DNA of 27,241 bases from an uncultured Candidatus Saccharibacteria bacterium (GCA_964522815.1 CAZFXC010000003.1:2261-29501), one strand, 5' to 3'. Counted from the stretch's first letter, positions 10,945 through 22,983 are shown. Notes: generated by a model from the letters alone, not told the origin. Numbers and translations: made by a program.

Positions 10945-11038
10945 ACGACCGCAGATTATTAAAACACAGATTGCACAAAAAAATATCTAATTGACAGAGT
11001 CATGTGAGTTTATCAGTGTTTATCTTAAATATACATTT

Positions 11039-12805
11039 ATGGAAAAAGAATATATAACCTTATTTGCCAAAACTAACTTCCGAAATAAAGAAGTGCCTTT
11101 TGGTATTAAAACAGATGACAGAAGAAGGCATATGTATTTAATCGGTAAAACCGGTATGGGGAAGACCACTTTAATGGAAAATATGGTTATCCAAGACATT
11201 CAAAATGGCCACGGAGTTTGTTTTATTGATCCCCACGGTGATAGTGTGCAGAAAATTTTAAATTCCGTTCCTTCCAACCGAATTAATGACGTAATTTATT
11301 TTAATCCGGCTGACTTAGAATATCCTATTGCTTTCAATATTTTAGAAGCTGTGGATGTGGGTTATAAACATTTAGTCGCCTCCGGCTTAATGGGCGTATT
11401 TACTAAAATTTGGGCTAATGTTTGGTCAGCCAGAATGGAATATATTTTAAATAACACGATTCTGGCTTTATTGGAAAGTCCCGGTAACACTTTGTTGGGT
11501 ATAACTAGAATGTATGTGGACAAAAAGTATAGAAAAAAAATTATTGATAATATTAAAGATCCGGTAGTCAAGACTTTTTGGACCGATGAATATGCTAATT
11601 ATAATGAAAAGTATCGAACCGAAGCTATTGCCCCTATTCAAAACAAGGTGGGACAATTTTTATCGTCTGCGATTGTAAGAAATATTGTGGGTCAGCCTAA
11701 ATCTACCATTGAATTAAGACAGATTATGGATGAAAAGAAAATTTTAATCGTTGATATTTCCAAAGGCAAGGTGGGTGAAGATAATGCTGCGCTTTTAGGT
11801 GCCATGCTCATCACCAAACTGCAGTTAGCTGCTCTCTCTAGAGCCAATATTCCCGAAGAACAAAGAAATGACTTTTATTTATACGTAGATGAATTCCAAA
11901 ATTTTGCCACGGATAGTTTTGCAACTATTCTGAGCGAAGCTCGAAAATATCGGTTAAATTTAATCGTTGGACATCAATATATTGCTCAGCTGGAGCATGA
12001 TAAAAATACTCGGGTAAGAGATGCTATTTTTGGTAACGTAGGCACCATGGTCATGTTTAGAATTGGAGCTGCGGATGCCGAATTTTTGGAAACCGAATTT
12101 GACCCAATTTTTACGCCTAATGACTTGGTTAATTTACCCAAATACAATATTATTCTAAAGCTCATGATTAACGGGGTGGCGTCCGATCCGTTTTCAGCAA
12201 TCACTCTTGCCCCAAACCCCAAGCTAGTTACTGGTAATATGGAAAAAATTGTTAAAGTCTCCAGGGAAAGGTTTGGTAATCCGGTTTCCGAGGTTGAAGA
12301 AAAAATCCATAGATGGATGGGCTCTGACTACCATAAAGAAACAGCTATTTTAATTGGACAACATTCAGAAGAGGAATTAGAAAATAATGCCCAATCGGCT
12401 TTGGAACCTGTTTTTGAACAGCTCAAAGAAAAACCAGAGGTTGAACCAAAAATTTCCACTCACAATCCCGAAGTATTAACCAAACCCATTTTAAATCAAC
12501 CCAAACCCGTTCAGGCTAATAAAGAAGCGCTTAAAAAGCCGAATCATCAAAAAACCAACGATACTAGTAAACACTGGGAGGAACGAAAAAAACATAAAAA
12601 TGAGCAAAATCGAAATAAAGATAAAGGTAATCAAAAAAAAGAAAACCCAATTTGGCAAGTGGCTTTTGGTTTAAATCAAGCCAATCAAAAACCGCCTAGC
12701 CATACCAGTCCAGTCATTCCTGTAGTCAGAGAAGATAAGGAAGATCAGACGCCTAAACAGTCAAGTAAAATAGTACTAAGTCCGGGCGATAAACATAACT
12801 TTTAA
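11039..12805 (+). CDS. VirD4/TrwB/HerA-FtsK superfamily P-loop ATPase (type IV secretion coupling-protein-like) with long low-complexity C-tail
   Basis: DRRRHMYLIGKTGMGKT (Walker A), FIDPHGD, LYVDEFQNF (Walker B), LSEARKYRLNL, IFGNVGT. Start reassigned to ATG 11039; the ORF track's TTG at 10991 adds 16 non-homologous residues. Confidence 0.88.
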   Translation: MEKEYITLFAKTNFRNKEVPFGIKTDDRRRHMYLIGKTGMGKTTLMENMVIQDIQNGHGVCFIDPHGDSVQKILNSVPSNRINDVIYFNPADLEYPIAFNILEAVDVGYKHLVASGLMGVFTKIWANVWSARMEYILNNTILALLESPGNTLLGITRMYVDKKYRKKIIDNIKDPVVKTFWTDEYANYNEKYRTEAIAPIQNKVGQFLSSAIVRNIVGQPKSTIELRQIMDEKKILIVDISKGKVGEDNAALLGAMLITKLQLAALSRANIPEEQRNDFYLYVDEFQNFATDSFATILSEARKYRLNLIVGHQYIAQLEHDKNTRVRDAIFGNVGTMVMFRIGAADAEFLETEFDPIFTPNDLVNLPKYNIILKLMINGVASDPFSAITLAPNPKLVTGNMEKIVKVSRERFGNPVSEVEEKIHRWMGSDYHKETAILIGQHSEEELENNAQSALEPVFEQLKEKPEVEPKISTHNPEVLTKPILNQPKPVQANKEALKKPNHQKTNDTSKHWEERKKHKNEQNRNKDKGNQKKENPIWQVAFGLNQANQKPPSHTSPVIPVVREDKEDQTPKQSSKIVLSPGDKHNF

Positions 12806-13342: not shown

Positions 13343-14299
13343 GTGAAAAACAAAAAAATTTTAACCTTCCTTTTTACTCATCTCATTTTTTTAAATCTAT
13401 ATTTTCCTAGTGCTTTTAGCATACAAAATCGCACAGCATTAACTCAATTAAATCAACCCAAAGTTTTAGGAGCGTTTACAGAAAACCCCAGAAACGCTGT
13501 TTTGGAGCAATTACCGCCTATAAAAAAGTCGCCTTACAACCAAGCCTTAGAAGACGAAGTTTTAGGAAAAGCATATTTAGTCATTGATTTAAAAACCCAT
13601 GAGATTTTGCTAGACAAATCACCAAATTTAAAATTACCGATTGCCAGTATTACCAAGCTGTTAACGGCAGTTACCGCCTATGACTATTTGGACCCTATGC
13701 AAAATTATGCTGTGCCCAAGATTAATGAAAAGTATCGGGTAAAGCCAGCTTTAAATTTACTGGAAGATCAAAAAGTTAAAATGGTTGATTTATTAAAGAG
13801 TGCATTAGTATGTTCGGCTAATGACGCGGCGGAAGCTTTATCTCAAATTACTGAATTAGTCACTCAACAAGAGTTTATTTTTTTAATGAATGAGAAAGCC
13901 AAATCAATAGGAATGCTAAACAGTAATTTTTCCAACCCTACCGGTTTTGATAGCGAAAATAACTTTTCTACAGCCAGGGATTTACTCAAATTAGCCGAGT
14001 ACAGTTTGAATATGTCTATCATTAAACAGTTAGGCAAACTCAGACGGGTAGATTTTAGCAGTTTAGAAGGTAATCAATATGTATGTAAAACCAGCAATAA
14101 GTTAATATGGGAAAATTCTGAATTTGAGAATCTAAAAACCGGTTGGACAGAAAAATCTAACGGTTCCATGATTGTTAAAGCCAAAAATCATGTAAATGAA
14201 ATATTGGTAATTTTACTGAATAGTCCTGACAGGGAAGCAGATGTAAAGCGGTTAGCGGATCTGGCTTTTCAACAATTTCAGTGGAATTTGGAAAAATAA
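13343..14299 (+). CDS. D-alanyl-D-alanine carboxypeptidase (peptidase S11, LMW-PBP)
   Basis: N-terminal signal or TM segment; PIASITK (SxxK), SAN (SxN), LKTG (KTG); NSNFSNPTGFD. GTG start. Confidence 0.92.
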   Translation: MKNKKILTFLFTHLIFLNLYFPSAFSIQNRTALTQLNQPKVLGAFTENPRNAVLEQLPPIKKSPYNQALEDEVLGKAYLVIDLKTHEILLDKSPNLKLPIASITKLLTAVTAYDYLDPMQNYAVPKINEKYRVKPALNLLEDQKVKMVDLLKSALVCSANDAAEALSQITELVTQQEFIFLMNEKAKSIGMLNSNFSNPTGFDSENNFSTARDLLKLAEYSLNMSIIKQLGKLRRVDFSSLEGNQYVCKTSNKLIWENSEFENLKTGWTEKSNGSMIVKAKNHVNEILVILLNSPDREADVKRLADLAFQQFQWNLEK

Positions 14300-14325: not shown

Positions 14326-15366
14326 ATGCGAAACATTTACCTAATAAAAATATTATTTCTAGGAAGTTTATCTTTCATTATCTCTTACATTCTTACCCCA
14401 ATACTCACAAATTTTCTCTACAAGAATCATTTGGGTAAAAATATCAGATCAGCCAATTTAGCCCCCATCTTTCATAAATTACATTCCAACAAATCGGGAA
14501 CTCCAACAATGGGTGGAATGTTGATTTGGGGCACCACTACCTTACTCTTAGTATTTTTTTGGATATGTGATCGTTTCTTTCACATAGAATCAGTAGCATT
14601 TTTAAATTTTTTAAGCCGAAAAGAAACACTGTTACCTTTTGGAGCATTTATTGGGTCAGCGATTGTGGGTTTAATTGACGACTGGCTGGATGTCAAAAAA
14701 TTAGGTCATGAAGGAAAAGGTTTAAGGTTTAGATTTAAAATTTGGTTATATTTGCTTGTGTCTGTTATTGGAGCTTATTGGTTTTATTTTAAACTAGATT
14801 TTACTTATGTTAACCTACCTTTTTTAGGAAATTTTGATTTAGGCATTTGGTTTATTCCATTTTTTATTTTAATGACAACCGGAATTAGTTTTGCTGTTAA
14901 TCAATCCGATGGGCTTGATGGACTTGCTGGAGGTCTTTTGCTTATTGCTTTCGTTAGCTATGGTGTAATTGCTTATACGCAAGCTGATTATAATTTAGCC
15001 AGTTTAATCGCCGTTGTTTGTGGCGCATTACTGTCATTTTTATGGTTTAATGTTTATCCAGCCAGGTTTTTTATGGGCGATACCGGATCTATGGGTATGG
15101 GTGTTTTATTATCTATCATTGCATTTTTGACTAATTCGGTAATTTTATTGATATTTTTTGGTTTTATTTTTGCTCTGGAAGGTTTTTCGACTTTAATTCA
15201 ACTGTTTTGGAAAAAATACTTTGGAAAAAAACTTTTTATTTCTTCGCCTTTGCATCACCATTTTGAAGCGCTTGGCTGGCCTGAAACCAAAGTTACCATG
15301 CGATTTTGGATAATTGCGGCCGTTATGTCTTCCTTAGGATTAATTATTTATTTCATCAATCTCTAA
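14326..15366 (+). CDS. mraY: Phospho-N-acetylmuramoyl-pentapeptide transferase
   Basis: KSGTPTMGG, GLIDD, NQSDGLDGLAGG, FNVYPARFFMGDTGS, SPLHHHFE; about 10 TM segments. Confidence 0.98.
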   Translation: MRNIYLIKILFLGSLSFIISYILTPILTNFLYKNHLGKNIRSANLAPIFHKLHSNKSGTPTMGGMLIWGTTTLLLVFFWICDRFFHIESVAFLNFLSRKETLLPFGAFIGSAIVGLIDDWLDVKKLGHEGKGLRFRFKIWLYLLVSVIGAYWFYFKLDFTYVNLPFLGNFDLGIWFIPFFILMTTGISFAVNQSDGLDGLAGGLLLIAFVSYGVIAYTQADYNLASLIAVVCGALLSFLWFNVYPARFFMGDTGSMGMGVLLSIIAFLTNSVILLIFFGFIFALEGFSTLIQLFWKKYFGKKLFISSPLHHHFEALGWPETKVTMRFWIIAAVMSSLGLIIYFINL

Positions 15367-15372
15367 ACTAAT

Positions 15373-16932
15373 ATGTATTCATTGCTTATAAAAAACGCAA
15401 CGGTAATTGATGGAACAGGCACACCGGGAAAAATTTTAGACATTGCCATTGAGGGCGACAAAATTGTAAACCTTGATAAAAATATTCCTTCTAAGGCCAT
15501 AAGAACCATTGATGCAAGTAATTTAGTAGTCAGTCCCGGCTTTATAGACTTACAAAACCATAGCGATACCTATTGGCAAATTTTTGAAAATCCCACTTTA
15601 GACAGTCTTCTGTTTCAAGGTTTTACTTCTATTATTATAGGCAATTGTGGAGCTAGTTTAGCTCCTTTATTATCCCATAATAGTTTGTTATCCAGCCAAA
15701 AATGGCATAACTTGCAAGGTATTAATACTGATTGGCAAACTTTCAATGAATTTTTGACTAGAATGGAGCAACATAAAATTGCTTTGAACGTGGGGAGTTT
15801 AGTTGGGTACAGCACCCTCAGAAGGGGAATAGTTGGTGATCAAATTCGTTCGCTGGATAAACCGGAGTTTAAAGCAATTACCAAAACTCTAATTGAGTGT
15901 TTGGAAAACGGAGCCTTTGGACTCTCCAGCGGATTGTCTTATTCCCACGAAATAATAGTTTCCGAATTAGAATTATTTGAGTTGGCCAAAATAATAAAAA
16001 ATTACCACTCGCTCTTGTCTATCCATTTACGCAATGAAGGCGATGAAATTTTAGAAAGCATAGAAGAAGTAATTGATATTGCCAAAAATGCTGAAGTAAA
16101 TTTAAAAATTTCTCATTTAAAAGTTAAGGGGAAAAATAATTGGAAAAAATTTAACGATGTTATCTCTGATTTAGAAACTGCTTTCCATAGGGGAGCTAAT
16201 ATTCATTTCGATGTGTATCCCTACGATACAGTTTGGCAACCGCTTTACTCTTATTTACCTAAATGGTCCATTGAAGGTGGAAGAAAAAATTTGATTCAAA
16301 ATTTAAATGATCCCATTCAAAAAAAGAAGATATTAATCTACTTAAACGGCTTAGGTATTAAATTACCCGAACTAATTGTAGCTTCCACAGGCAATCCTTT
16401 ATCGGCAACGGGTAAGAAGGTGGGTCAAATTGCTAAAAATATGGAATGTTCTTCTGAACAAGCCATAATTTATTTGATTCAGCACGGAGGAAGTGAAGTC
16501 CTAGTTTTTGAAAATAATCTTAATATGGAGCAGGTAAGACAACTATTATTCCATCCTTTAAGTTTAATTGGAACCGATGGTGCAGGATTTGGTTTAAATA
16601 ACCACGAGAAGCTAGTCCATCCGCGTTGTTTTGGCACCACAATAAAATTTTTAGAGTTGATGAAAGAAGCTAAACTTCCTTTGGAAGTTGGCATTAAAAA
16701 GTTAACCTCACTCCCGGCCAAAAAAGCGGGCATTAAGCACCGGGGGGAAATTCAAGTAAATAATTATGCGGATTTGGTTATATTTGATTCGGAAAGTTTT
16801 AAGGCCAAAGCCAATTATGTTAATCCTTTTCAATCCAATGAGGGAATTAAATACGTAATTGTTAATGGCCATATTGCCATGGAAGACAACAAAATTTCTC
16901 CGGTGCTTAAAGGAAAAGTTTTAAGAAAATGA
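15373..16932 (+). CDS. N-acyl-D-amino-acid deacylase (D-aminoacylase)-like amidohydrolase, divergent
   Basis: LIKNATVIDGTG, PGFIDLQNHSD, GNCG, GAFGLSSGL, SIHLRNE, ISHLK, FDVYPY, GTDG, HPRCFGT and ADLVIFD, all in D-aminoacylase order. Confidence 0.88.
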   Translation: MYSLLIKNATVIDGTGTPGKILDIAIEGDKIVNLDKNIPSKAIRTIDASNLVVSPGFIDLQNHSDTYWQIFENPTLDSLLFQGFTSIIIGNCGASLAPLLSHNSLLSSQKWHNLQGINTDWQTFNEFLTRMEQHKIALNVGSLVGYSTLRRGIVGDQIRSLDKPEFKAITKTLIECLENGAFGLSSGLSYSHEIIVSELELFELAKIIKNYHSLLSIHLRNEGDEILESIEEVIDIAKNAEVNLKISHLKVKGKNNWKKFNDVISDLETAFHRGANIHFDVYPYDTVWQPLYSYLPKWSIEGGRKNLIQNLNDPIQKKKILIYLNGLGIKLPELIVASTGNPLSATGKKVGQIAKNMECSSEQAIIYLIQHGGSEVLVFENNLNMEQVRQLLFHPLSLIGTDGAGFGLNNHEKLVHPRCFGTTIKFLELMKEAKLPLEVGIKKLTSLPAKKAGIKHRGEIQVNNYADLVIFDSESFKAKANYVNPFQSNEGIKYVIVNGHIAMEDNKISPVLKGKVLRK

Positions 16933-18287
16933 CTTTATCAGATTTAAACAATAAACAAATTGCGGTTGTAGGCTACGGCATGGAAGGCAAAGCAATTGTT
17001 AAATACTTACTCAAGCATAAGTTAACACCGGTTTTAGTCGACGAGTTACCTTGGGAGAAATGGTCAGCAGAAGAACAATTGGCAATCAAAAGCCTAAAAA
17101 TAAATTTTATTTTCGGTCCGGATGCTTTTTTAGAACTGGGCACTTTTGACATTATCTTTAGAAGCCCAGGAATTCCAATTTTAAAACTCAAACAACACGT
17201 TCCTAAAACTTGCATTATCACCAGTCAAACTAAATGGTTTTTTGACCATTGTCCCAGTAAAATTATCGGCATTACAGGCACCAAAGGTAAAGGGACAACC
17301 ACCTCACTGATTTACCACATTCTAAAAACCCAAACAACGCATACTGTTTATTTAACTGGCAATATTGGGCAAACTCAACCTTTGGAAATTTTAGACGAAT
17401 TAACCCCATCAGCTTATGTTGTATATGAATTGTCTAGTTTTCAACTCCAAGATTTAGACAAAAGTCCACATATTGCTGTAGTTTTAATGGTTACCAGCGA
17501 ACATCTGGATTATCATAAAGATTTAAACGAATACCAGACTGCCAAAGCGAATCTTACTCGTTTTCAAACCGAGCAAGATTTTGCAGTTATAAACGCAGAT
17601 TATGAAAACTCAGTAAAAATTGGAAAGTTGAGTTCAGGCAAACACAAATTTTTTAGCAGACAAAAACCAGTTGTTGATGGTTGCTATTTAGAAACAGATG
17701 CAATTATTACCACGGAATCAAATTTTAGATTTGCTATCAAACATTTTCCACTGAGAGGTAAGCATAATTTGGAGAATATTTGCGCATCCATTTTAGTTGC
17801 AAGGATTTTGAAGGTTGAATTTGAGGCAATAAATCATGCACTAACCAATTTTAAAGGATTGGAACATAGACTAGAGTTTGTGGCAAATCAAGGCGGAATT
17901 CAATACTTTAATGATTCATTTTCTACAACACCCGAAACCGCTATTGGTGCCATCAGCTCCTTTTTTGAACCTTTAATTGTCATTTTAGGTGGTTCCTCTA
18001 AAAATTCCAACTTTACAGAGCTGGGCAAAACCATAAACACTACTCCAAATTTAAAAGCGGTAATTTTAATTGGCGAAGAAGCAAAAAAAATTCAACAAGT
18101 TATTTCCAGAACCGATATTCCGATTTACACTTCAGCAACTAATATGAAACAAATTTTCGAACAAATCCATTTAGTGGCCCAACCCGGAGATGTGGTTTTA
18201 CTCTCACCGGCCTGCGCCAGTTTTGGAATGTTTAAAAATTATAAAGATCGGGGTGAACAATTTAAGTATTTTGTAGCTCATGCATAA
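16929..18287 (+). CDS. murD: UDP-N-acetylmuramoyl-L-alanine--D-glutamate ligase
   Basis: GYGMEG, RSPGI, GITGTKGKGTT P-loop, GNIG, ELSSFQL, HLDYH, FKGLEHRLEFV, NDSFST, LLSPACASF. Confidence 0.97.
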   Translation: MTLSDLNNKQIAVVGYGMEGKAIVKYLLKHKLTPVLVDELPWEKWSAEEQLAIKSLKINFIFGPDAFLELGTFDIIFRSPGIPILKLKQHVPKTCIITSQTKWFFDHCPSKIIGITGTKGKGTTTSLIYHILKTQTTHTVYLTGNIGQTQPLEILDELTPSAYVVYELSSFQLQDLDKSPHIAVVLMVTSEHLDYHKDLNEYQTAKANLTRFQTEQDFAVINADYENSVKIGKLSSGKHKFFSRQKPVVDGCYLETDAIITTESNFRFAIKHFPLRGKHNLENICASILVARILKVEFEAINHALTNFKGLEHRLEFVANQGGIQYFNDSFSTTPETAIGAISSFFEPLIVILGGSSKNSNFTELGKTINTTPNLKAVILIGEEAKKIQQVISRTDIPIYTSATNMKQIFEQIHLVAQPGDVVLLSPACASFGMFKNYKDRGEQFKYFVAHA

Positions 18288-19380
18288 AAAAAGTCAAAAA
18301 ATAGATTTGGTGTTTGTCTTTGCCTTAATTAGCCTTATGGTTTTAGGTTTAATTTCTTTATATTCCGCCTCAACTGTAAAAGCTTTTGAAAATTTTGGCT
18401 ACACCACTTACTACATTATTCACCAAATCTTGTATGGGCTTTTAGCCGGAATAATCGGTTTTATTATTTTCTCCAAACTTGATTATCATAAATGGCAAAA
18501 ATTTTTGCCCCTAATATTATTGTCTTCATTACTTTTATTAATCGCGGTCAAAATCCCCGGGATAGGTTTTTCTGCCAATGGCGCCGATAGATGGATCCAT
18601 TTTGGTCCGATTTTTTTTCAACCTTCGGAATACGCAAAATTGGCAATTATTATTTATTTAGCTAGCTATGCCCATAAATTTTCTTTAAAAAATTTACCGT
18701 TTTTAAGCGGAATTTTACCACCAATAATTTTGGTTCTAATTTATGCCTGGTTAATACTAATTCAGCCGGATTTTGGCACAATGAGTATTTTAGTTTTAAC
18801 CTCAATAATTATGTTGTTTGCCTCTGGCTTAAAGCTCAAGCACTTTATAATTTTAGGTCTATGCGGTTTATTGTTATCAATAGCTCTAATTAAATTGGAG
18901 CCGTATCGATATAATCGACTATTAAGCTTTTTAGACTCCAATCACGATAAATTAGGCGCCAGTTATCAGATTAATCAATCATTACTGGGGATAGGTGCCG
19001 GTGGGGCTTGGGGCTATGGTTATGGACTCTCCAGACAAAAATATAATTATTTACCCGAACCAATGAATGATTCAATTTTTGCGATTACCGCGGAAGAATT
19101 GGGTTTTTTTAGAACTCTGGTTATACTCTTAGCTTTTATCTTTTTTATTTTTCGGGGTTTAACCATTGCTAAACTGGCCAAAGACAAATTTGGCCAGTTA
19201 TTGACACTGGGAATAATTTCTTGGATTGGTCTCCAAGCCATTATTAACATTTCTGCCCTAACCGGTTTAATTCCTTTAACCGGAGTGCCATTACCTTTTT
19301 TTAGCTATGGGAGCTCAGCTCTGGTAGTTTTATTAACGGCTTGTGGTATTATTGCCAATATTAGCAAACAAAGTTCATAA
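18280..19380 (+). CDS. ftsW: SEDS family peptidoglycan glycosyltransferase FtsW
   Basis: GADRWI, FQPSEYAK, QPDFG, YQINQSL, YLPEPMNDSIFA, EELG, TGVPLPFFSYGSS. Immediately follows murD. Confidence 0.93.
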   Translation: MHKKSQKIDLVFVFALISLMVLGLISLYSASTVKAFENFGYTTYYIIHQILYGLLAGIIGFIIFSKLDYHKWQKFLPLILLSSLLLLIAVKIPGIGFSANGADRWIHFGPIFFQPSEYAKLAIIIYLASYAHKFSLKNLPFLSGILPPIILVLIYAWLILIQPDFGTMSILVLTSIIMLFASGLKLKHFIILGLCGLLLSIALIKLEPYRYNRLLSFLDSNHDKLGASYQINQSLLGIGAGGAWGYGYGLSRQKYNYLPEPMNDSIFAITAEELGFFRTLVILLAFIFFIFRGLTIAKLAKDKFGQLLTLGIISWIGLQAIINISALTGLIPLTGVPLPFFSYGSSALVVLLTACGIIANISKQSS

Positions 19381-19385
19381 TCAGT

Positions 19386-21395
19386 ATGTGGATAAAGTTT
19401 AGAAAAAAAACAACTACTTTAATTTCAATAAAACAGCCAATTGTAAAAAATGTCAATTGGCTTAATAGTTTCTTTCGGCATAAACTAAATTTAAACTCAT
19501 TAAAGCGAATTAATTTGCTGAATTTTTTTTTACTGGTGATAGTTTGCTGGGCAATCTTTCAAGTGGTTAGGATTTCAGCCATTGCCAATAATTTAAAGGA
19601 GCAAATTCTTAAGAAGGTGGCTGTGGTTACCACCCAATTTTCCCAAAAAGACAAGGCTTTAAATTTCAATCAACTCTCAACCGATCTCCAAACCATTGAG
19701 GAAACTTTAAATGAGATCGATCAAATTAATAACTCCATTGCCAATACGACCCTAAACTTGTCCAGATTGACTGCTGATTCAAAAAATCTAAAAAAACTAT
19801 CCAAACTCGGTTTACTGCTAACCGATAGTGGTAAAAAAATAATTAATCTTAAAGAATTATTCAGTAAACTTACTTTTAAAAGTTATGGCGTTTCAGGCAT
19901 AGAAAATATTAAATTTCTACAATCAGAACTACTGGCTTTAGAAGATAATTTGGTGCAAATTAATCAAATCATTAATCATAATAAGTGGAGCGGTCTGGAA
20001 CCTGGCTATGTAGCAAAGCTACAATCCTTAGCTAAAATTTTAGATCAATCAATAATTAAAATAGGACCAATCAATCAATTTGCCCAATTAGGTGACCAAT
20101 TATTGGAAGGCAGAAACAATTACTTAATCCTCTTACAAAACCAAAATGAACTCAGACCAACCGGAGGCTTTATCGGCTCATTCGCAAATTTCCATATAAA
20201 TCGAGGAAGTATTGAAAAGATTCAGCTTACGAGTATATATGACTTAGATGGTCAATTAATTGAAAAAATTACCCCGCCGGAGCCACTATTGGCAGTAAAT
20301 GATCGCTGGTATTTAAGGGATGCTAACTGGTTTGTTGACTTTGAGCAGAGCGCTAAAAAAATCACGGAATTTTTTGAAAAGGAGGGTGGAGAAACACCCG
20401 ATTTTATTATTGCGATAACCCCCAAAATTATTTCCGATTTAATTGCTTTGGTGGGACCAATTAAATTAGAAACCGGCTTAGAACTCAATTCGGAAAATTT
20501 AGTTGAGCAATTACAATTTCTGACTCAACAAAATTTATTGGCTGTCAAAAATGAACCGAAGCAAATACTTTCCACATTAATGGACAAATTATTTTATGAA
20601 ATCGAACAGTTACCCGGCGACCAAAAAACTCAACTTCCCAAAATTTTGTTTGAAAATTTGCAAGCTAAACAAATTTTAGCCTTTGCAAAAAATCCCAAAA
20701 CCCAAAAAATATTCAATGATTTTAATTGGTCAGGCAAAATTCATAACAATAGTAAGGACTTTCTTTTTGTAAATATTAGCAACCTAAATGGTTCAAAAAC
20801 CGATTTATTTATTAATCAAGGCTTGGATTTGGTGAGTAACTTTTCTCCCCAAGGCAAAATTACCAATACGCTTACCATTAAGCGAATCAATACCTTACCC
20901 GAAGGCAAAGATACGACTAGCTTAGTGTATGCCAGAATTTTGGTTCCAAAAGGTAGTAAATTTATTGAGGCGGTGGGTTTTAAAAATCTTGACCTACCAA
21001 AGTTAAGTTTAAATGAATATAAACCTGACGAAGACGTCAAAACTTGGGAAAAAAAATTATTGCGTGATGTAACGACCGGCACTACCATTGGAGAGGAAGC
21101 GGATAAAACTTTTTTTGCTAACTGGATAGAAGTCAAACCGGGGAGCGAGAGCAGTGTTAAATTGACCTACGAATTACCCTTTAAATTAAGTGCATTGAAT
21201 GCCTATAGTATAATTTTTCAAAAACAACCCGGCACCACTAACCAAACCGTAACGCATAAACTTGTTTATGAGAATAAACAAGTTCTCTGGCATAATTTAA
21301 CAAACCCGCTCATAGAAGATAACATACTTAGCTATAATACTGTATTGAATAAGGATTTAATTTTTGGTATCCTCTTAAAGGACAATGATAAATAA
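19386..21395 (+). CDS. DUF4012-like membrane-anchored extracellular protein
   Basis: One N-terminal TM (LLNFFLLVIVCWAIFQVV), a long helical region, then LLQNQNELRPTGGFIGSF, LRDANWFVDF, NLNGSKTD and QKQPG, motifs recognised from DUF4012 proteins. Confidence 0.8.
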   Translation: MWIKFRKKTTTLISIKQPIVKNVNWLNSFFRHKLNLNSLKRINLLNFFLLVIVCWAIFQVVRISAIANNLKEQILKKVAVVTTQFSQKDKALNFNQLSTDLQTIEETLNEIDQINNSIANTTLNLSRLTADSKNLKKLSKLGLLLTDSGKKIINLKELFSKLTFKSYGVSGIENIKFLQSELLALEDNLVQINQIINHNKWSGLEPGYVAKLQSLAKILDQSIIKIGPINQFAQLGDQLLEGRNNYLILLQNQNELRPTGGFIGSFANFHINRGSIEKIQLTSIYDLDGQLIEKITPPEPLLAVNDRWYLRDANWFVDFEQSAKKITEFFEKEGGETPDFIIAITPKIISDLIALVGPIKLETGLELNSENLVEQLQFLTQQNLLAVKNEPKQILSTLMDKLFYEIEQLPGDQKTQLPKILFENLQAKQILAFAKNPKTQKIFNDFNWSGKIHNNSKDFLFVNISNLNGSKTDLFINQGLDLVSNFSPQGKITNTLTIKRINTLPEGKDTTSLVYARILVPKGSKFIEAVGFKNLDLPKLSLNEYKPDEDVKTWEKKLLRDVTTGTTIGEEADKTFFANWIEVKPGSESSVKLTYELPFKLSALNAYSIIFQKQPGTTNQTVTHKLVYENKQVLWHNLTNPLIEDNILSYNTVLNKDLIFGILLKDNDK

Positions 21396-22983
21396 ATTCA
21401 AAGCATTAGAAAAAAATTTTTCAATTAACAAAGCTGCCATTATTATTGGCGTTTTCACAATACTGTCCAGACTTACCGGACTGATTCGCGACCGAATGTT
21501 TGCCAGTGGTTTTGGAGCAGGGGATACACTCGATGCTTACTATGCTGCCTTTAGAATCCCTGATTTCATTTATAATTTATTAATTTTAGGCACGCTTTCT
21601 ATTGCCTTTATTCCAATATTTAGCGAACTAATTGTTAAAGACAAAATTCAAGCCAATAAAACCGCTAACACGGTTTTAAACGCCAGTATAATTTTGGTAA
21701 GTGTCACCTGTTTGCTGGCTTTTCTTTTTTCAAAATTTATTACCAAAGCTTTAGTCCCTGGTTTTACAGAAGAAAAATTACATGTAACCATAAATTTAAC
21801 CAGGTTATTTTTATTATCACCAATAATTTTTACCATCTCCAATGTATTTTCCAGTATTTTAAATGCGCAAAAAAAATTTATTGCAGTTGGATTGGCTCCC
21901 ATTTTGTATAACTTGGGCATAATTGTGGGTCTGTTCATTTTCTATCCTAAATTTGGGATATATGGTGTGGGTCTGGGTGTCATATTGGGCGCTGTAATGC
22001 ACTTACTAATTCAAATTCCGGCAGTCGTTAAATCCGGTTTTACTTGGTTACCCATTATAAATTTTAACGATAAAGCTTTTTTAAAAATTACCAAATTATT
22101 TATTCCAAAAATATTAGGTTTGGATAATTCACAAATCAGCCTACTGATTGGATCAATGGTTGGCTCACTGTTAGCTTCTGGTTCCATTGCAGTTTTGAAC
22201 TTGGCTAACAATTTACAAGCAGTGCCAGTGGGAATTTTTGGCATTTCCATTGCTCTGGCTAGTTTTCCATTACTCAGCGAAGCATACGCCAAACATGACG
22301 AAAATCAATTTTTAAAGGCGTTGGGGGACAGTATTGTGCAAATCCTGTTTTTCATTTTACCCGTTACTGTTTTATTTCTTTTATTAAGAGCCCATATTGT
22401 GAGACTGGTATATGGCACAGGCAATTTTACTTGGGAAAATACAATTTTAACTTTTCAAACACTAGGTGTTTTTAGCCTTTCGTTATTCAGCCAAGCGATT
22501 TCTCCACTTCTTAGCAGATGTTTTTATGCAAGACAAAACACAATCATTCCGGTTATGATCAATTCACTGGTTATGGTCTTAAACGCGTTAGGCGCCTATT
22601 TTTTTGGCAAACTCTATGGAGTTTGGGGAATTGCTTTAGGGTTTAGTATATCAAGCATGGTTAGTGTTATACTGTTGTATATAACCCTCAATGCTTTTTT
22701 GCAAAAAAAGATTGACATGCCTAGCTTAAAACAGTTTAATTTTAACGTATTAATGAGTACTCTTAAAATTTTATTAGCTACGTTTATATCAGGCTTGGCT
22801 ATTTATTTTTGTTTGTACTTTATTGAACCTTTTGTCAATACGAGAACAGGTATTGGTTTATTGGTCCAAGCGGGGTTTGCTAGTTTCATGGGAATAGTTA
22901 TATATTTACTGTTTGGATACCAAATTAAAATTAAGCAAGTCGACTATTACATCAGACTGTTAACTTTATGGCGCAAGACTTAA
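21385..22983 (+). CDS. murJ: Lipid II flippase MurJ (MviN)
   Basis: SRLTGLIRDR, DAYYAAFRIPD, LANNLQAVPVGIFG, FYARQNT; polytopic membrane protein. Confidence 0.96.
   Translation: MINKFKALEKNFSINKAAIIIGVFTILSRLTGLIRDRMFASGFGAGDTLDAYYAAFRIPDFIYNLLILGTLSIAFIPIFSELIVKDKIQANKTANTVLNASIILVSVTCLLAFLFSKFITKALVPGFTEEKLHVTINLTRLFLLSPIIFTISNVFSSILNAQKKFIAVGLAPILYNLGIIVGLFIFYPKFGIYGVGLGVILGAVMHLLIQIPAVVKSGFTWLPIINFNDKAFLKITKLFIPKILGLDNSQISLLIGSMVGSLLASGSIAVLNLANNLQAVPVGIFGISIALASFPLLSEAYAKHDENQFLKALGDSIVQILFFILPVTVLFLLLRAHIVRLVYGTGNFTWENTILTFQTLGVFSLSLFSQAISPLLSRCFYARQNTIIPVMINSLVMVLNALGAYFFGKLYGVWGIALGFSISSMVSVILLYITLNAFLQKKIDMPSLKQFNFNVLMSTLKILLATFISGLAIYFCLYFIEPFVNTRTGIGLLVQAGFASFMGIVIYLLFGYQIKIKQVDYYIRLLTLWRKT

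Follow-up and report, generated by a model that had tools for sequence, protein, structure and literature searches.

A D-aminoacylase-family protein encoded beside murD in bacteria of the Candidate Phyla Radiation, with recurrent loss of its catalytic residues

The D-aminoacylases belong to subtype V of the amidohydrolase superfamily, which includes the D-aminoacylase of Alcaligenes faecalis (AfDam, PDB code 1M7J, EC 3.5.1.81), the N-acyl-D-glutamate deacylase Bb3285 of Bordetella bronchiseptica (BbDam, PDB code 3GIP, EC 3.5.1.82) and the GlcNAc1A de-N-acetylase PpOngB (PDB code 9KB1). A Cys/His/His set binds the single catalytic zinc, the aspartate of strand 8 and both histidines of an HxH motif are needed in the family, and the H68A, H70A and Asp mutants of PpOngB are inactive (PMC12017989). 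We describe a relative of these enzymes encoded in 27,241 nucleotides of DNA from an uncultured Candidatus Saccharibacteria bacterium (GCA_964522815.1, CAZFXC010000003.1:2261-29501), a stretch that we call the window. The gene, an open reading frame at positions 15373 to 16932 of the plus strand, specifies a protein of 519 amino acids, hereafter the amidohydrolase, and lies between mraY and murD in a cell-wall cluster. The fold and ancestry of the protein are ordinary; what is out of the ordinary is its fixed coupling to murD and the repeated shift towards a non-catalytic form among its orthologues in the Candidate Phyla Radiation (CPR).

Membership of the D-aminoacylase family is clear. The amidohydrolase passes the Pfam cut-offs for Amidohydro_3 and Amidohydro_1, and a HMMER search gives AfDam as the top solved relative (1m7j, E 3e-59); the other best solved relatives are a Klebsiella D-acylase, the sugar-acid deacetylase OngB and the Bordetella N-acyl-D-glutamate deacylase (E 2e-49). 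Profile comparison with the D-aminoacylase family returns E values of 1e-106 to 1e-108. The NCBIfam subfamily PRK09061, with a cut-off of 340 bits, is not reached, the three matching stretches giving 132.8 bits. AlphaFold2 modelling on 51 orthologues gave a predicted local distance difference test score (pLDDT) of 94.3, and the protein is predicted from the model to consist of the (β/α)8 barrel, the β-sandwich of N- and C-terminal segments and the α/β insertion domain by which the family is recognised. The top nine Foldseek matches of the model are all D-aminoacylase-family proteins, with template modelling (TM) scores of 0.82–0.84 by query and 0.89–0.92 by target. The three-part fold is shared with AfDam (TM 0.84/0.91, 27% sequence identity), BbDam (TM 0.84/0.92) and PpOngB. 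The first strand in the solved structures is matched by the N-terminus from residue 2–4, leaving no room for a signal peptide, and the amidohydrolase is therefore probably cytoplasmic.

The active site resembles that of AfDam with two substitutions. HMMER alignment to 1m7j pairs DLQNHSD with DSHTHDD, GNCG with GNCG, SIHLRNEG with ATHMRDEG, ISHLKV with ISHHKV and IGTDG with IGSDG. The β-site zinc ligands C92, H218 and H248 align to Cys96, His220 and His250 of AfDam, and D402 to the catalytic strand-8 aspartate, Asp366. The motifs GNCGxSLAPL and YPY are common to the two proteins, as are the Tyr/Lys/Tyr/Arg anchors of the substrate carboxylate, a set also found in PpOngB and represented in the window copy by Y190, K250, Y282, Y284 and R418. 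The second HxH histidine is kept as H63, but the first is glutamine, so that the window protein has Q61-N-H63 where AfDam has His67 and His69 and where PpOngB likewise keeps both histidines. This glutamine is invariant in the class sample. In the profile alignment YPYDTVWQPL is set against YPYVAGSTML, and the anchoring Ser289 of the family is replaced by W288. A preliminary description of this DNA had listed the four retained residues C92, H218, H248 and D402, the glutamine of DLQNHSD, and the motifs GYSTLR (Y146) and DTVWQP (residues 285–290); all are borne out by position and alignment.

A third difference concerns the insertion domain. The specificity loop of the solved enzymes, about nine residues that carry Leu298 in AfDam, Arg295 in BbDam and Gln298 in OngB, is represented in the amidohydrolase by a segment of some 40 residues (about 292–331) that solved D-aminoacylases lack. 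We compared 147 distinct CPR orthologues, on which the orthologue counts given here rest and which, coming from related genomes, are not independent samples. In these the insert has an LPxW..GG motif (P296 in 147, W298 in 146, together with Y292 and G302-G303), and positions 304, 317 and 319 are basic in 128–130. BbDam acts on N-acyl-D-Glu, D-Glu being the amino acid of the neighbouring MurD and MurI, but its Arg295, the loop 2 residue that binds the γ-carboxylate, has no alignable counterpart in the insert, and it is the gene context that suggests D-Glu specificity for the amidohydrolase. PpOngB illustrates that the family can switch substrate class by remodelling of insertion-domain loops; its context is chitin oxidation and not cell-wall synthesis. 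The view in the preliminary description that the protein has diverged within the D-aminoacylase family and has a reshaped pocket at the insertion domain is supported.

The insert is not confined to the CPR. Among the 150 best matches (32–47% identity), 138 full-length representatives of 470–600 residues were examined and 82 share the insert and keep the full canonical set H-H-C-H-H-D (positions 61, 63, 92, 218, 248 and 402). Judged by such comparisons the murD-linked CPR proteins seem to have branched off within a canonical subfamily that is itself uncharacterised. Canonical relatives with the LPxW insert (NCBIfam PRK09061-like, 32–37% identity) have the long insertion segment and the anchors of the amidohydrolase but retain the full catalytic set, and murD occurs in none of the three genomic contexts looked up: one has a peptide ATP-binding cassette (ABC) transporter before it and a γ-glutamyl peptidase after it, one follows a lytic transglycosylase, and one is uninformative. 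More distant homologues (25–34% identity; P0123, P0125, P0126 and P0157–P0162) carry an additional domain, either an S13 D-Ala-D-Ala carboxypeptidase or one of class-C β-lactamase type, and aminotransferase-domain fusions are found also; every fused form lies outside the CPR clade. These fusions hint that other branches of the family process peptides that end in a D-amino acid. A search for fused forms joining the amidohydrolase to MurD, MraY or MurI found none, and an apparent MraY fusion in genome G060 (an 861-residue open frame) was rejected because the two matches are in different frames.

The position of the gene is far beyond chance. In the window the start at 15373 follows the mraY stop at 15366 after a 6-nt gap, and the TGA stop shares four nucleotides, ATGA, with the murD start at 16929, as the preliminary description had it. 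The gene is present as a single copy in the window genome (0.92 Mb, 94% complete), and close homologues carry the name Candidatus Doudnabacteria. It was found in 142 of 146 genomes of the class Doudnabacteria, and in 117 of the 118 of high quality. An even sample of 401 Patescibacteria contained 59 carriers, 25 from the class and 34 among the 376 others, and the genes around it are in every case cell-wall genes. When one genome per GTDB species was scanned with a pattern, at least 592 relatives were recovered, in records titled Doudna-, Morani-, Portnoy-, Sung-, Azam- and Torokbacteria and other Parcubacteria.

The gene order S11 carboxypeptidase, mraY, amidohydrolase, murD, ftsW, DUF4012, murJ is seen in each of the six families that make up the class, with a few local exceptions, and the arrangement recurs in many other Patescibacteria. 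On the same strand murD follows the gene at 126 of 147 orthologous loci, at 103 of them within 300 nt, and mraY precedes it at 98. Within 1.5 kb, the window's own family has mraY upstream in 28 of 29 loci and murD downstream in 26 of 29. At each of the 20 loci fetched from other classes, at least one of mraY, murD and ftsW is no more than 4 kb away. Lineages of Moranbacteria type keep the gene paired with murD even where mraY and ftsW are elsewhere, and of 18 out-of-class genomes having both genes, 12 have murI within 1.4 kb of the amidohydrolase, directly adjoining in eight. The conserved core is the amidohydrolase with murD, frequently joined by murI, and the shared denominator is D-glutamate. 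Recurrence of the mraY–amidohydrolase–murD order, which the preliminary description had proposed as a check, is therefore found; co-operonic organisation with murD is upheld, and the link to D-Glu metabolism is stronger than was claimed, murD being the most constant neighbour.

Some database labels disagree with this distribution. A 3.4-kb contig labelled Acidobacteriaceae (L124) carries a CPR-type mraY-amidohydrolase-murD-ftsW block with 45% identity, and many 'TPA_asm' records named 'uncultured Candidatus Saccharibacteria' or 'Bdellovibrionales' have loci of the Doudna- or Moranbacteria type; wrong binning or labelling is the probable cause. One genome, G058 (98% complete), has no MurD above paralogue level (best match 62 bits). 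Its amidohydrolase, between mraY and ftsW at L048:3980-5527, is the most divergent of the family, with 41% identity and degraded anchors (Y190Q, Y284F). This single case is consistent with a functional coupling of the amidohydrolase to MurD.

How constant is the active site across this clade? The motif blocks align without ambiguity. The anchors are kept almost throughout (R418 in 146 of 147, Y284 in 143, Y190 in 142, K250 in 141 with Arg in a further five), in degenerate forms as well. The canonical H-H-C-H-H-D set is found in only six orthologues, and His at position 61 in only 11. The commonest pattern is that of the window, Q-H-C-H-H-D (73 orthologues), followed by N-H-C-H-H-N (19), N-H-S-Y-H-N (11) and T-H-C-H-H-D (10). 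D402 is replaced in 50 proteins, at least 26 have lost one or more zinc ligands, and the C/H/H/D set is complete in 94 and incomplete in 53. On a maximum-likelihood tree there are at least nine changes at the aspartate and at least ten transitions between complete and incomplete sets, some forming stepwise series, from HHCHHD through NHCHHN to NHSYHN and from QHCHHD through QHSHHN to QHSSHN. Active D-acylases that do without the bridging cysteine are known (PMC12149444), so loss of Cys by itself proves nothing; the argument turns on Cys, His and Asp being lost together.

The degenerate proteins are not the products of decaying genes. They keep the anchors, and murD lies directly downstream of NHCHHN and NHSYHN forms in 28 of 30 cases. 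Ratios of nonsynonymous to synonymous substitution (dN/dS) among degenerate forms are 0.04 for the pair with unsaturated dS and 0.07–0.09 for others, indicating strong purifying selection. In the degenerate genus g28 conservation of the amidohydrolase equals or exceeds that of MurD, 81% against 60% in one pair. The pattern associated with pseudoenzymes, loss of catalytic or metal-binding residues under purifying selection, is accordingly seen in 53 of 147 orthologues. The window copy, unlike those 53, is short of only His61 and the Ser anchor. The earlier idea that the gene supplies D-amino acids by hydrolysis fares unevenly: it is weakened in that about a third of orthologues are without the catalytic Asp or zinc ligands, while the window copy does keep C92, H218, H248 and D402. 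Since the degenerate orthologues preserve murD linkage, anchors and selection, hydrolysis cannot be what holds the gene beside murD across the clade.

Four features have to be reconciled: an intact head of the pocket, a remodelled and partly basic outer pocket, the near-obligatory place ahead of murD, often with murI as well, and the repeated loss of hydrolytic machinery while purifying selection persists. The product of MurD and the substrate of MraY each have at their end an N-acylated D-amino acid whose α-carboxylate is free. By analogy with the solved enzymes, Y190, K250, Y282/Y284 and R418 would hold the free α-carboxylate and the amide of such an N-acyl-D-amino acid. Our preference, tentative and somewhat short of an even chance, is that the amidohydrolase is a MurD-coupled binder of an N-acyl-D-amino-acid ligand of D-Glu type, with hydrolysis dispensable. 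It would then be, in part of the CPR, a partner devoted to the MurD step in the making of peptidoglycan precursors; selection would maintain recognition of the N-acyl-D-amino-acid head group and not hydrolysis, and the protein may assist, buffer or regulate the MurD/MurI step through hand-off of substrate or product, or through sensing. The window copy, with its complete β-site zinc triad and Asp, may keep some hydrolase activity, perhaps of slow turnover.

Several points weigh against such a binder. The C/H/H/D set is kept in 94 of 147 orthologues, the window copy among them, which argues that metal binding or catalysis still matters in most lineages. Q61 could still form a hydrogen bond to the Asp, and is on its own no proof of inactivity; nor is change of Cys to Ser decisive alone, given the active D-acylases without the bridging residue (PMC12149444). 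Identity of the ligand is deduced from gene neighbourhood and family chemistry, and both ligand binding and contact with MurD are putative. A complex prediction for amidohydrolase and MurD, with the chains given as alignments, scored 0.01 against a mark of 0.32 and speaks neither for nor against binding.

The preliminary description had suggested that the gene might replace MurI and Alr. This is refuted by the window genome, which contains murI (220 bits, above the cut-off), alr (238 bits) and ddl beside a murF-like ligase, with murC, murD and murE also present. The conventional supply of D-Glu and D-Ala is in place, and the cell is not dependent on the amidohydrolase for either. The murF-like ligase (genome G000, contig C44:2418-4870) scores 149 bits where the murF cut-off is 289 and, lying directly before ddl, is probably a MurF that has diverged. 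Nor is there the anticorrelation with murI that had been expected. In the 317 murD-bearing genomes of the phylum sample, murI was found in 31 of 57 carriers of the amidohydrolase (none in 26) and in 131 of 260 genomes without it (none in 129), tallies that were made by hand and depend on draft genomes and on the thresholds set for hidden Markov models (HMMs). The 131 include an unpublished genome, G293, whose removal changes nothing. At E <= 1e-5 no glutamate racemase match was obtained for 155 of the 317. Three genomes of 99–100% completeness that possess murD and the amidohydrolase (G128, G129 and G427) have neither a PF01177 protein nor a D-amino-acid aminotransferase (dat).

The main rival to a binder is an active mononuclear-zinc amidohydrolase in a salvage route parallel to MurI, which would release D-Glu, or L-Ala and D-Glu, from N-acyl-D-Glu, L-Ala-D-Glu or muropeptide fragments and so feed MurD; in essence this is the idea of the preliminary description with the replacement of MurI and Alr taken away. 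We regard it as somewhat less likely than a binder. It fits the canonical and near-canonical members and the gene settings of the canonical relatives. CPR bacteria rely on scavenged metabolites, and the N-acyl-D-Glu deacylase of known structure (3gip) is said, from work of Cummings in 2009, to cleave L-Xaa-D-Glu dipeptides also. The window copy retains H63 and all anchors in addition to C92, H218, H248 and D402, the C/H/H/D set is complete in the majority of orthologues noted above, and the six fully canonical CPR members are mostly arranged murI-X-murD. The canonical relatives outside murD loci adjoin a peptide transporter and γ-glutamyl peptidase or a lytic transglycosylase, and an N-acyl-D-Glu deacylase is part of the family (3gip; PMC12149444). 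However, Q61 stands for the histidine whose alanine mutant is dead in PpOngB, and W288 occupies the place of the anchoring Ser. At least ten independent losses of catalytic or zinc-binding residues have left murD linkage and purifying selection intact, and salvage does not explain orthologues that are degenerate, murD-linked and strongly constrained. The presence of murI and alr in the window genome and the lack of association with murI absence count against it too. Moreover G128 and G129, without murI or dat, carry a degenerate copy, so hydrolysis cannot supply their D-Glu; G427, from the same family as NHSYHN copies, also lacks murI and dat.

It is improbable that the gene specifies an unrelated hydrolase with a housekeeping role, such as a generic D-aminoacylase or dipeptidase, that is carried along in the cell-wall operon because the genomes are compact. 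Tight packing and mixed operons are usual in the CPR, and the link to MurD is known here from gene context, as a passenger would allow. Adjacency to murD nevertheless survives across orders and classes, even without mraY or ftsW nearby, nearly every genome of the class has the gene, in single copy, and in G058, a single case in which no murD was found, the anchors are degraded.

Accessory proteins paired with a Mur-ligase-type enzyme at the Glu of the stem peptide are represented elsewhere by MurD2/MurL and MurT/GatD (PMC8788868). The amidohydrolase differs in being homologous to neither MurL nor GatD, and the linked ligase scores as a canonical MurD. Homology to MurL (XOO_1319) was rejected by description, since MurL has no known conserved domains (PMC8788868) and the amidohydrolase is clear in its own. 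In the window MurD the counterpart of E. coli Asp182 is Glu (within SEH, residues 190–192, positions 17496–17504), as it is in MurD2, the ligase that adds L-Glu (PMC8788868). The linked MurDs divide at this position into 35 with Glu, 36 with Asp and four with Asn, and all but one, the window MurD included, keep Lys348; with this split, and with the lysine kept, MurD2-like specificity was dropped.

Non-hydrolytic catalysis at the D-Glu centre, in the manner of MurL, is very unlikely. Isomerases do occur in the amidohydrolase superfamily, and murD2 and murL are reportedly adjacent genes in Xanthomonas. G128, G129 and G427 would suit such an activity, possessing murD and the amidohydrolase but no gene of the Asp/Glu-racemase family and no dat; the Glu of the window MurD matches MurD2, and MurD2 and MurL were recovered together in a Xanthomonas complementation screen (PMC8788868). 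Yet murI is also missing from 129 of 260 murD-bearing non-carriers, so its absence is not specific to carriers, and the window genome has the gene. MurL, with no known domain (PMC8788868), is no homologue, the Glu/Asp state is split 35/36 with Lys348 kept, and no catalytic base pair can be identified in the amidohydrolase. Editing by hydrolysis, in which a D-amino acid ligated in error would be taken off MurD-made UDP-MurNAc-L-Ala-D-Xaa, is similarly hard to credit: MurD products are N-acyl-D-amino acids fitting the family pocket and the two genes are translationally coupled, but the degenerate orthologues count against it as they do against salvage, and we know of no precedent for editing at this step.

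The remaining genes of the cluster, all on the plus strand of the window, are those expected from the conserved order. The S11 D-Ala-D-Ala carboxypeptidase, a low-molecular-weight penicillin-binding protein (13343–14299; Pfam Peptidase_S11, E 8e-39), is the conserved first gene, upstream of mraY throughout the class. The mraY (14326–15366; TIGR00445, 196 bits, cut-off 192) and murD (16929–18287; TIGR01087, 360 bits, cut-off 212) genes both pass their NCBIfam equivalog cut-offs, and the latter matches the MurD structure 3lk7 with E 1e-58. Downstream of murD, ftsW of the SEDS family is kept (18280–19380; Pfam FTSW_RODA_SPOVE, E 1.5e-100), followed by a DUF4012 membrane protein (19386–21395; Pfam DUF4012, E 2e-27) and the lipid II flippase gene murJ (21385–22983; Pfam MurJ, E 2e-91). 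In every family of the class, and in some classes beyond it, the DUF4012 gene holds its place after ftsW, in the interval before murJ. A VirD4/TraG-like coupling ATPase is encoded at 10991–12805, upstream of the cluster by a few kb, and a similar gene occurs near the cluster in family members L044, L046, L049, L050 and L052.

A MurD-coupled, ligand-binding protein with dispensable hydrolysis would have parallels. Pseudoenzymes of the amidohydrolase fold act as structural subunits, as in the inactive dihydroorotase-like PyrC' of Pseudomonas aspartate transcarbamoylase (ATCase) and in the CRMPs. These share with the degenerate orthologues a barrel kept under selection after loss of metal and catalytic residues, beside a partner from the pathway or in complex with one. 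They differ in subfamily and in pathway.

The cytoplasmic Mur pathway is among the best-studied in bacteria and is usually taken as complete, yet a conserved extra gene lies beside murD in hundreds of CPR species. Full-text literature searches found no paper on a D-aminoacylase-like gene in CPR cell-wall clusters. The survey also exposes the question of where D-Glu comes from, as about half of murD-bearing Patescibacteria are without a recognisable glutamate racemase. It is possible, and we put it with reserve, that the amidohydrolase is an unrecognised accessory component of peptidoglycan precursor synthesis and that its orthologues form a natural series in which an enzyme has been converted repeatedly into a ligand-binding pseudoenzyme. 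If it does bind the MurD product or D-Glu, it would add a new layer of control or hand-off to cell-wall precursor synthesis in minimal genomes, and would offer a clean natural example of the passage from enzyme to pseudoenzyme.

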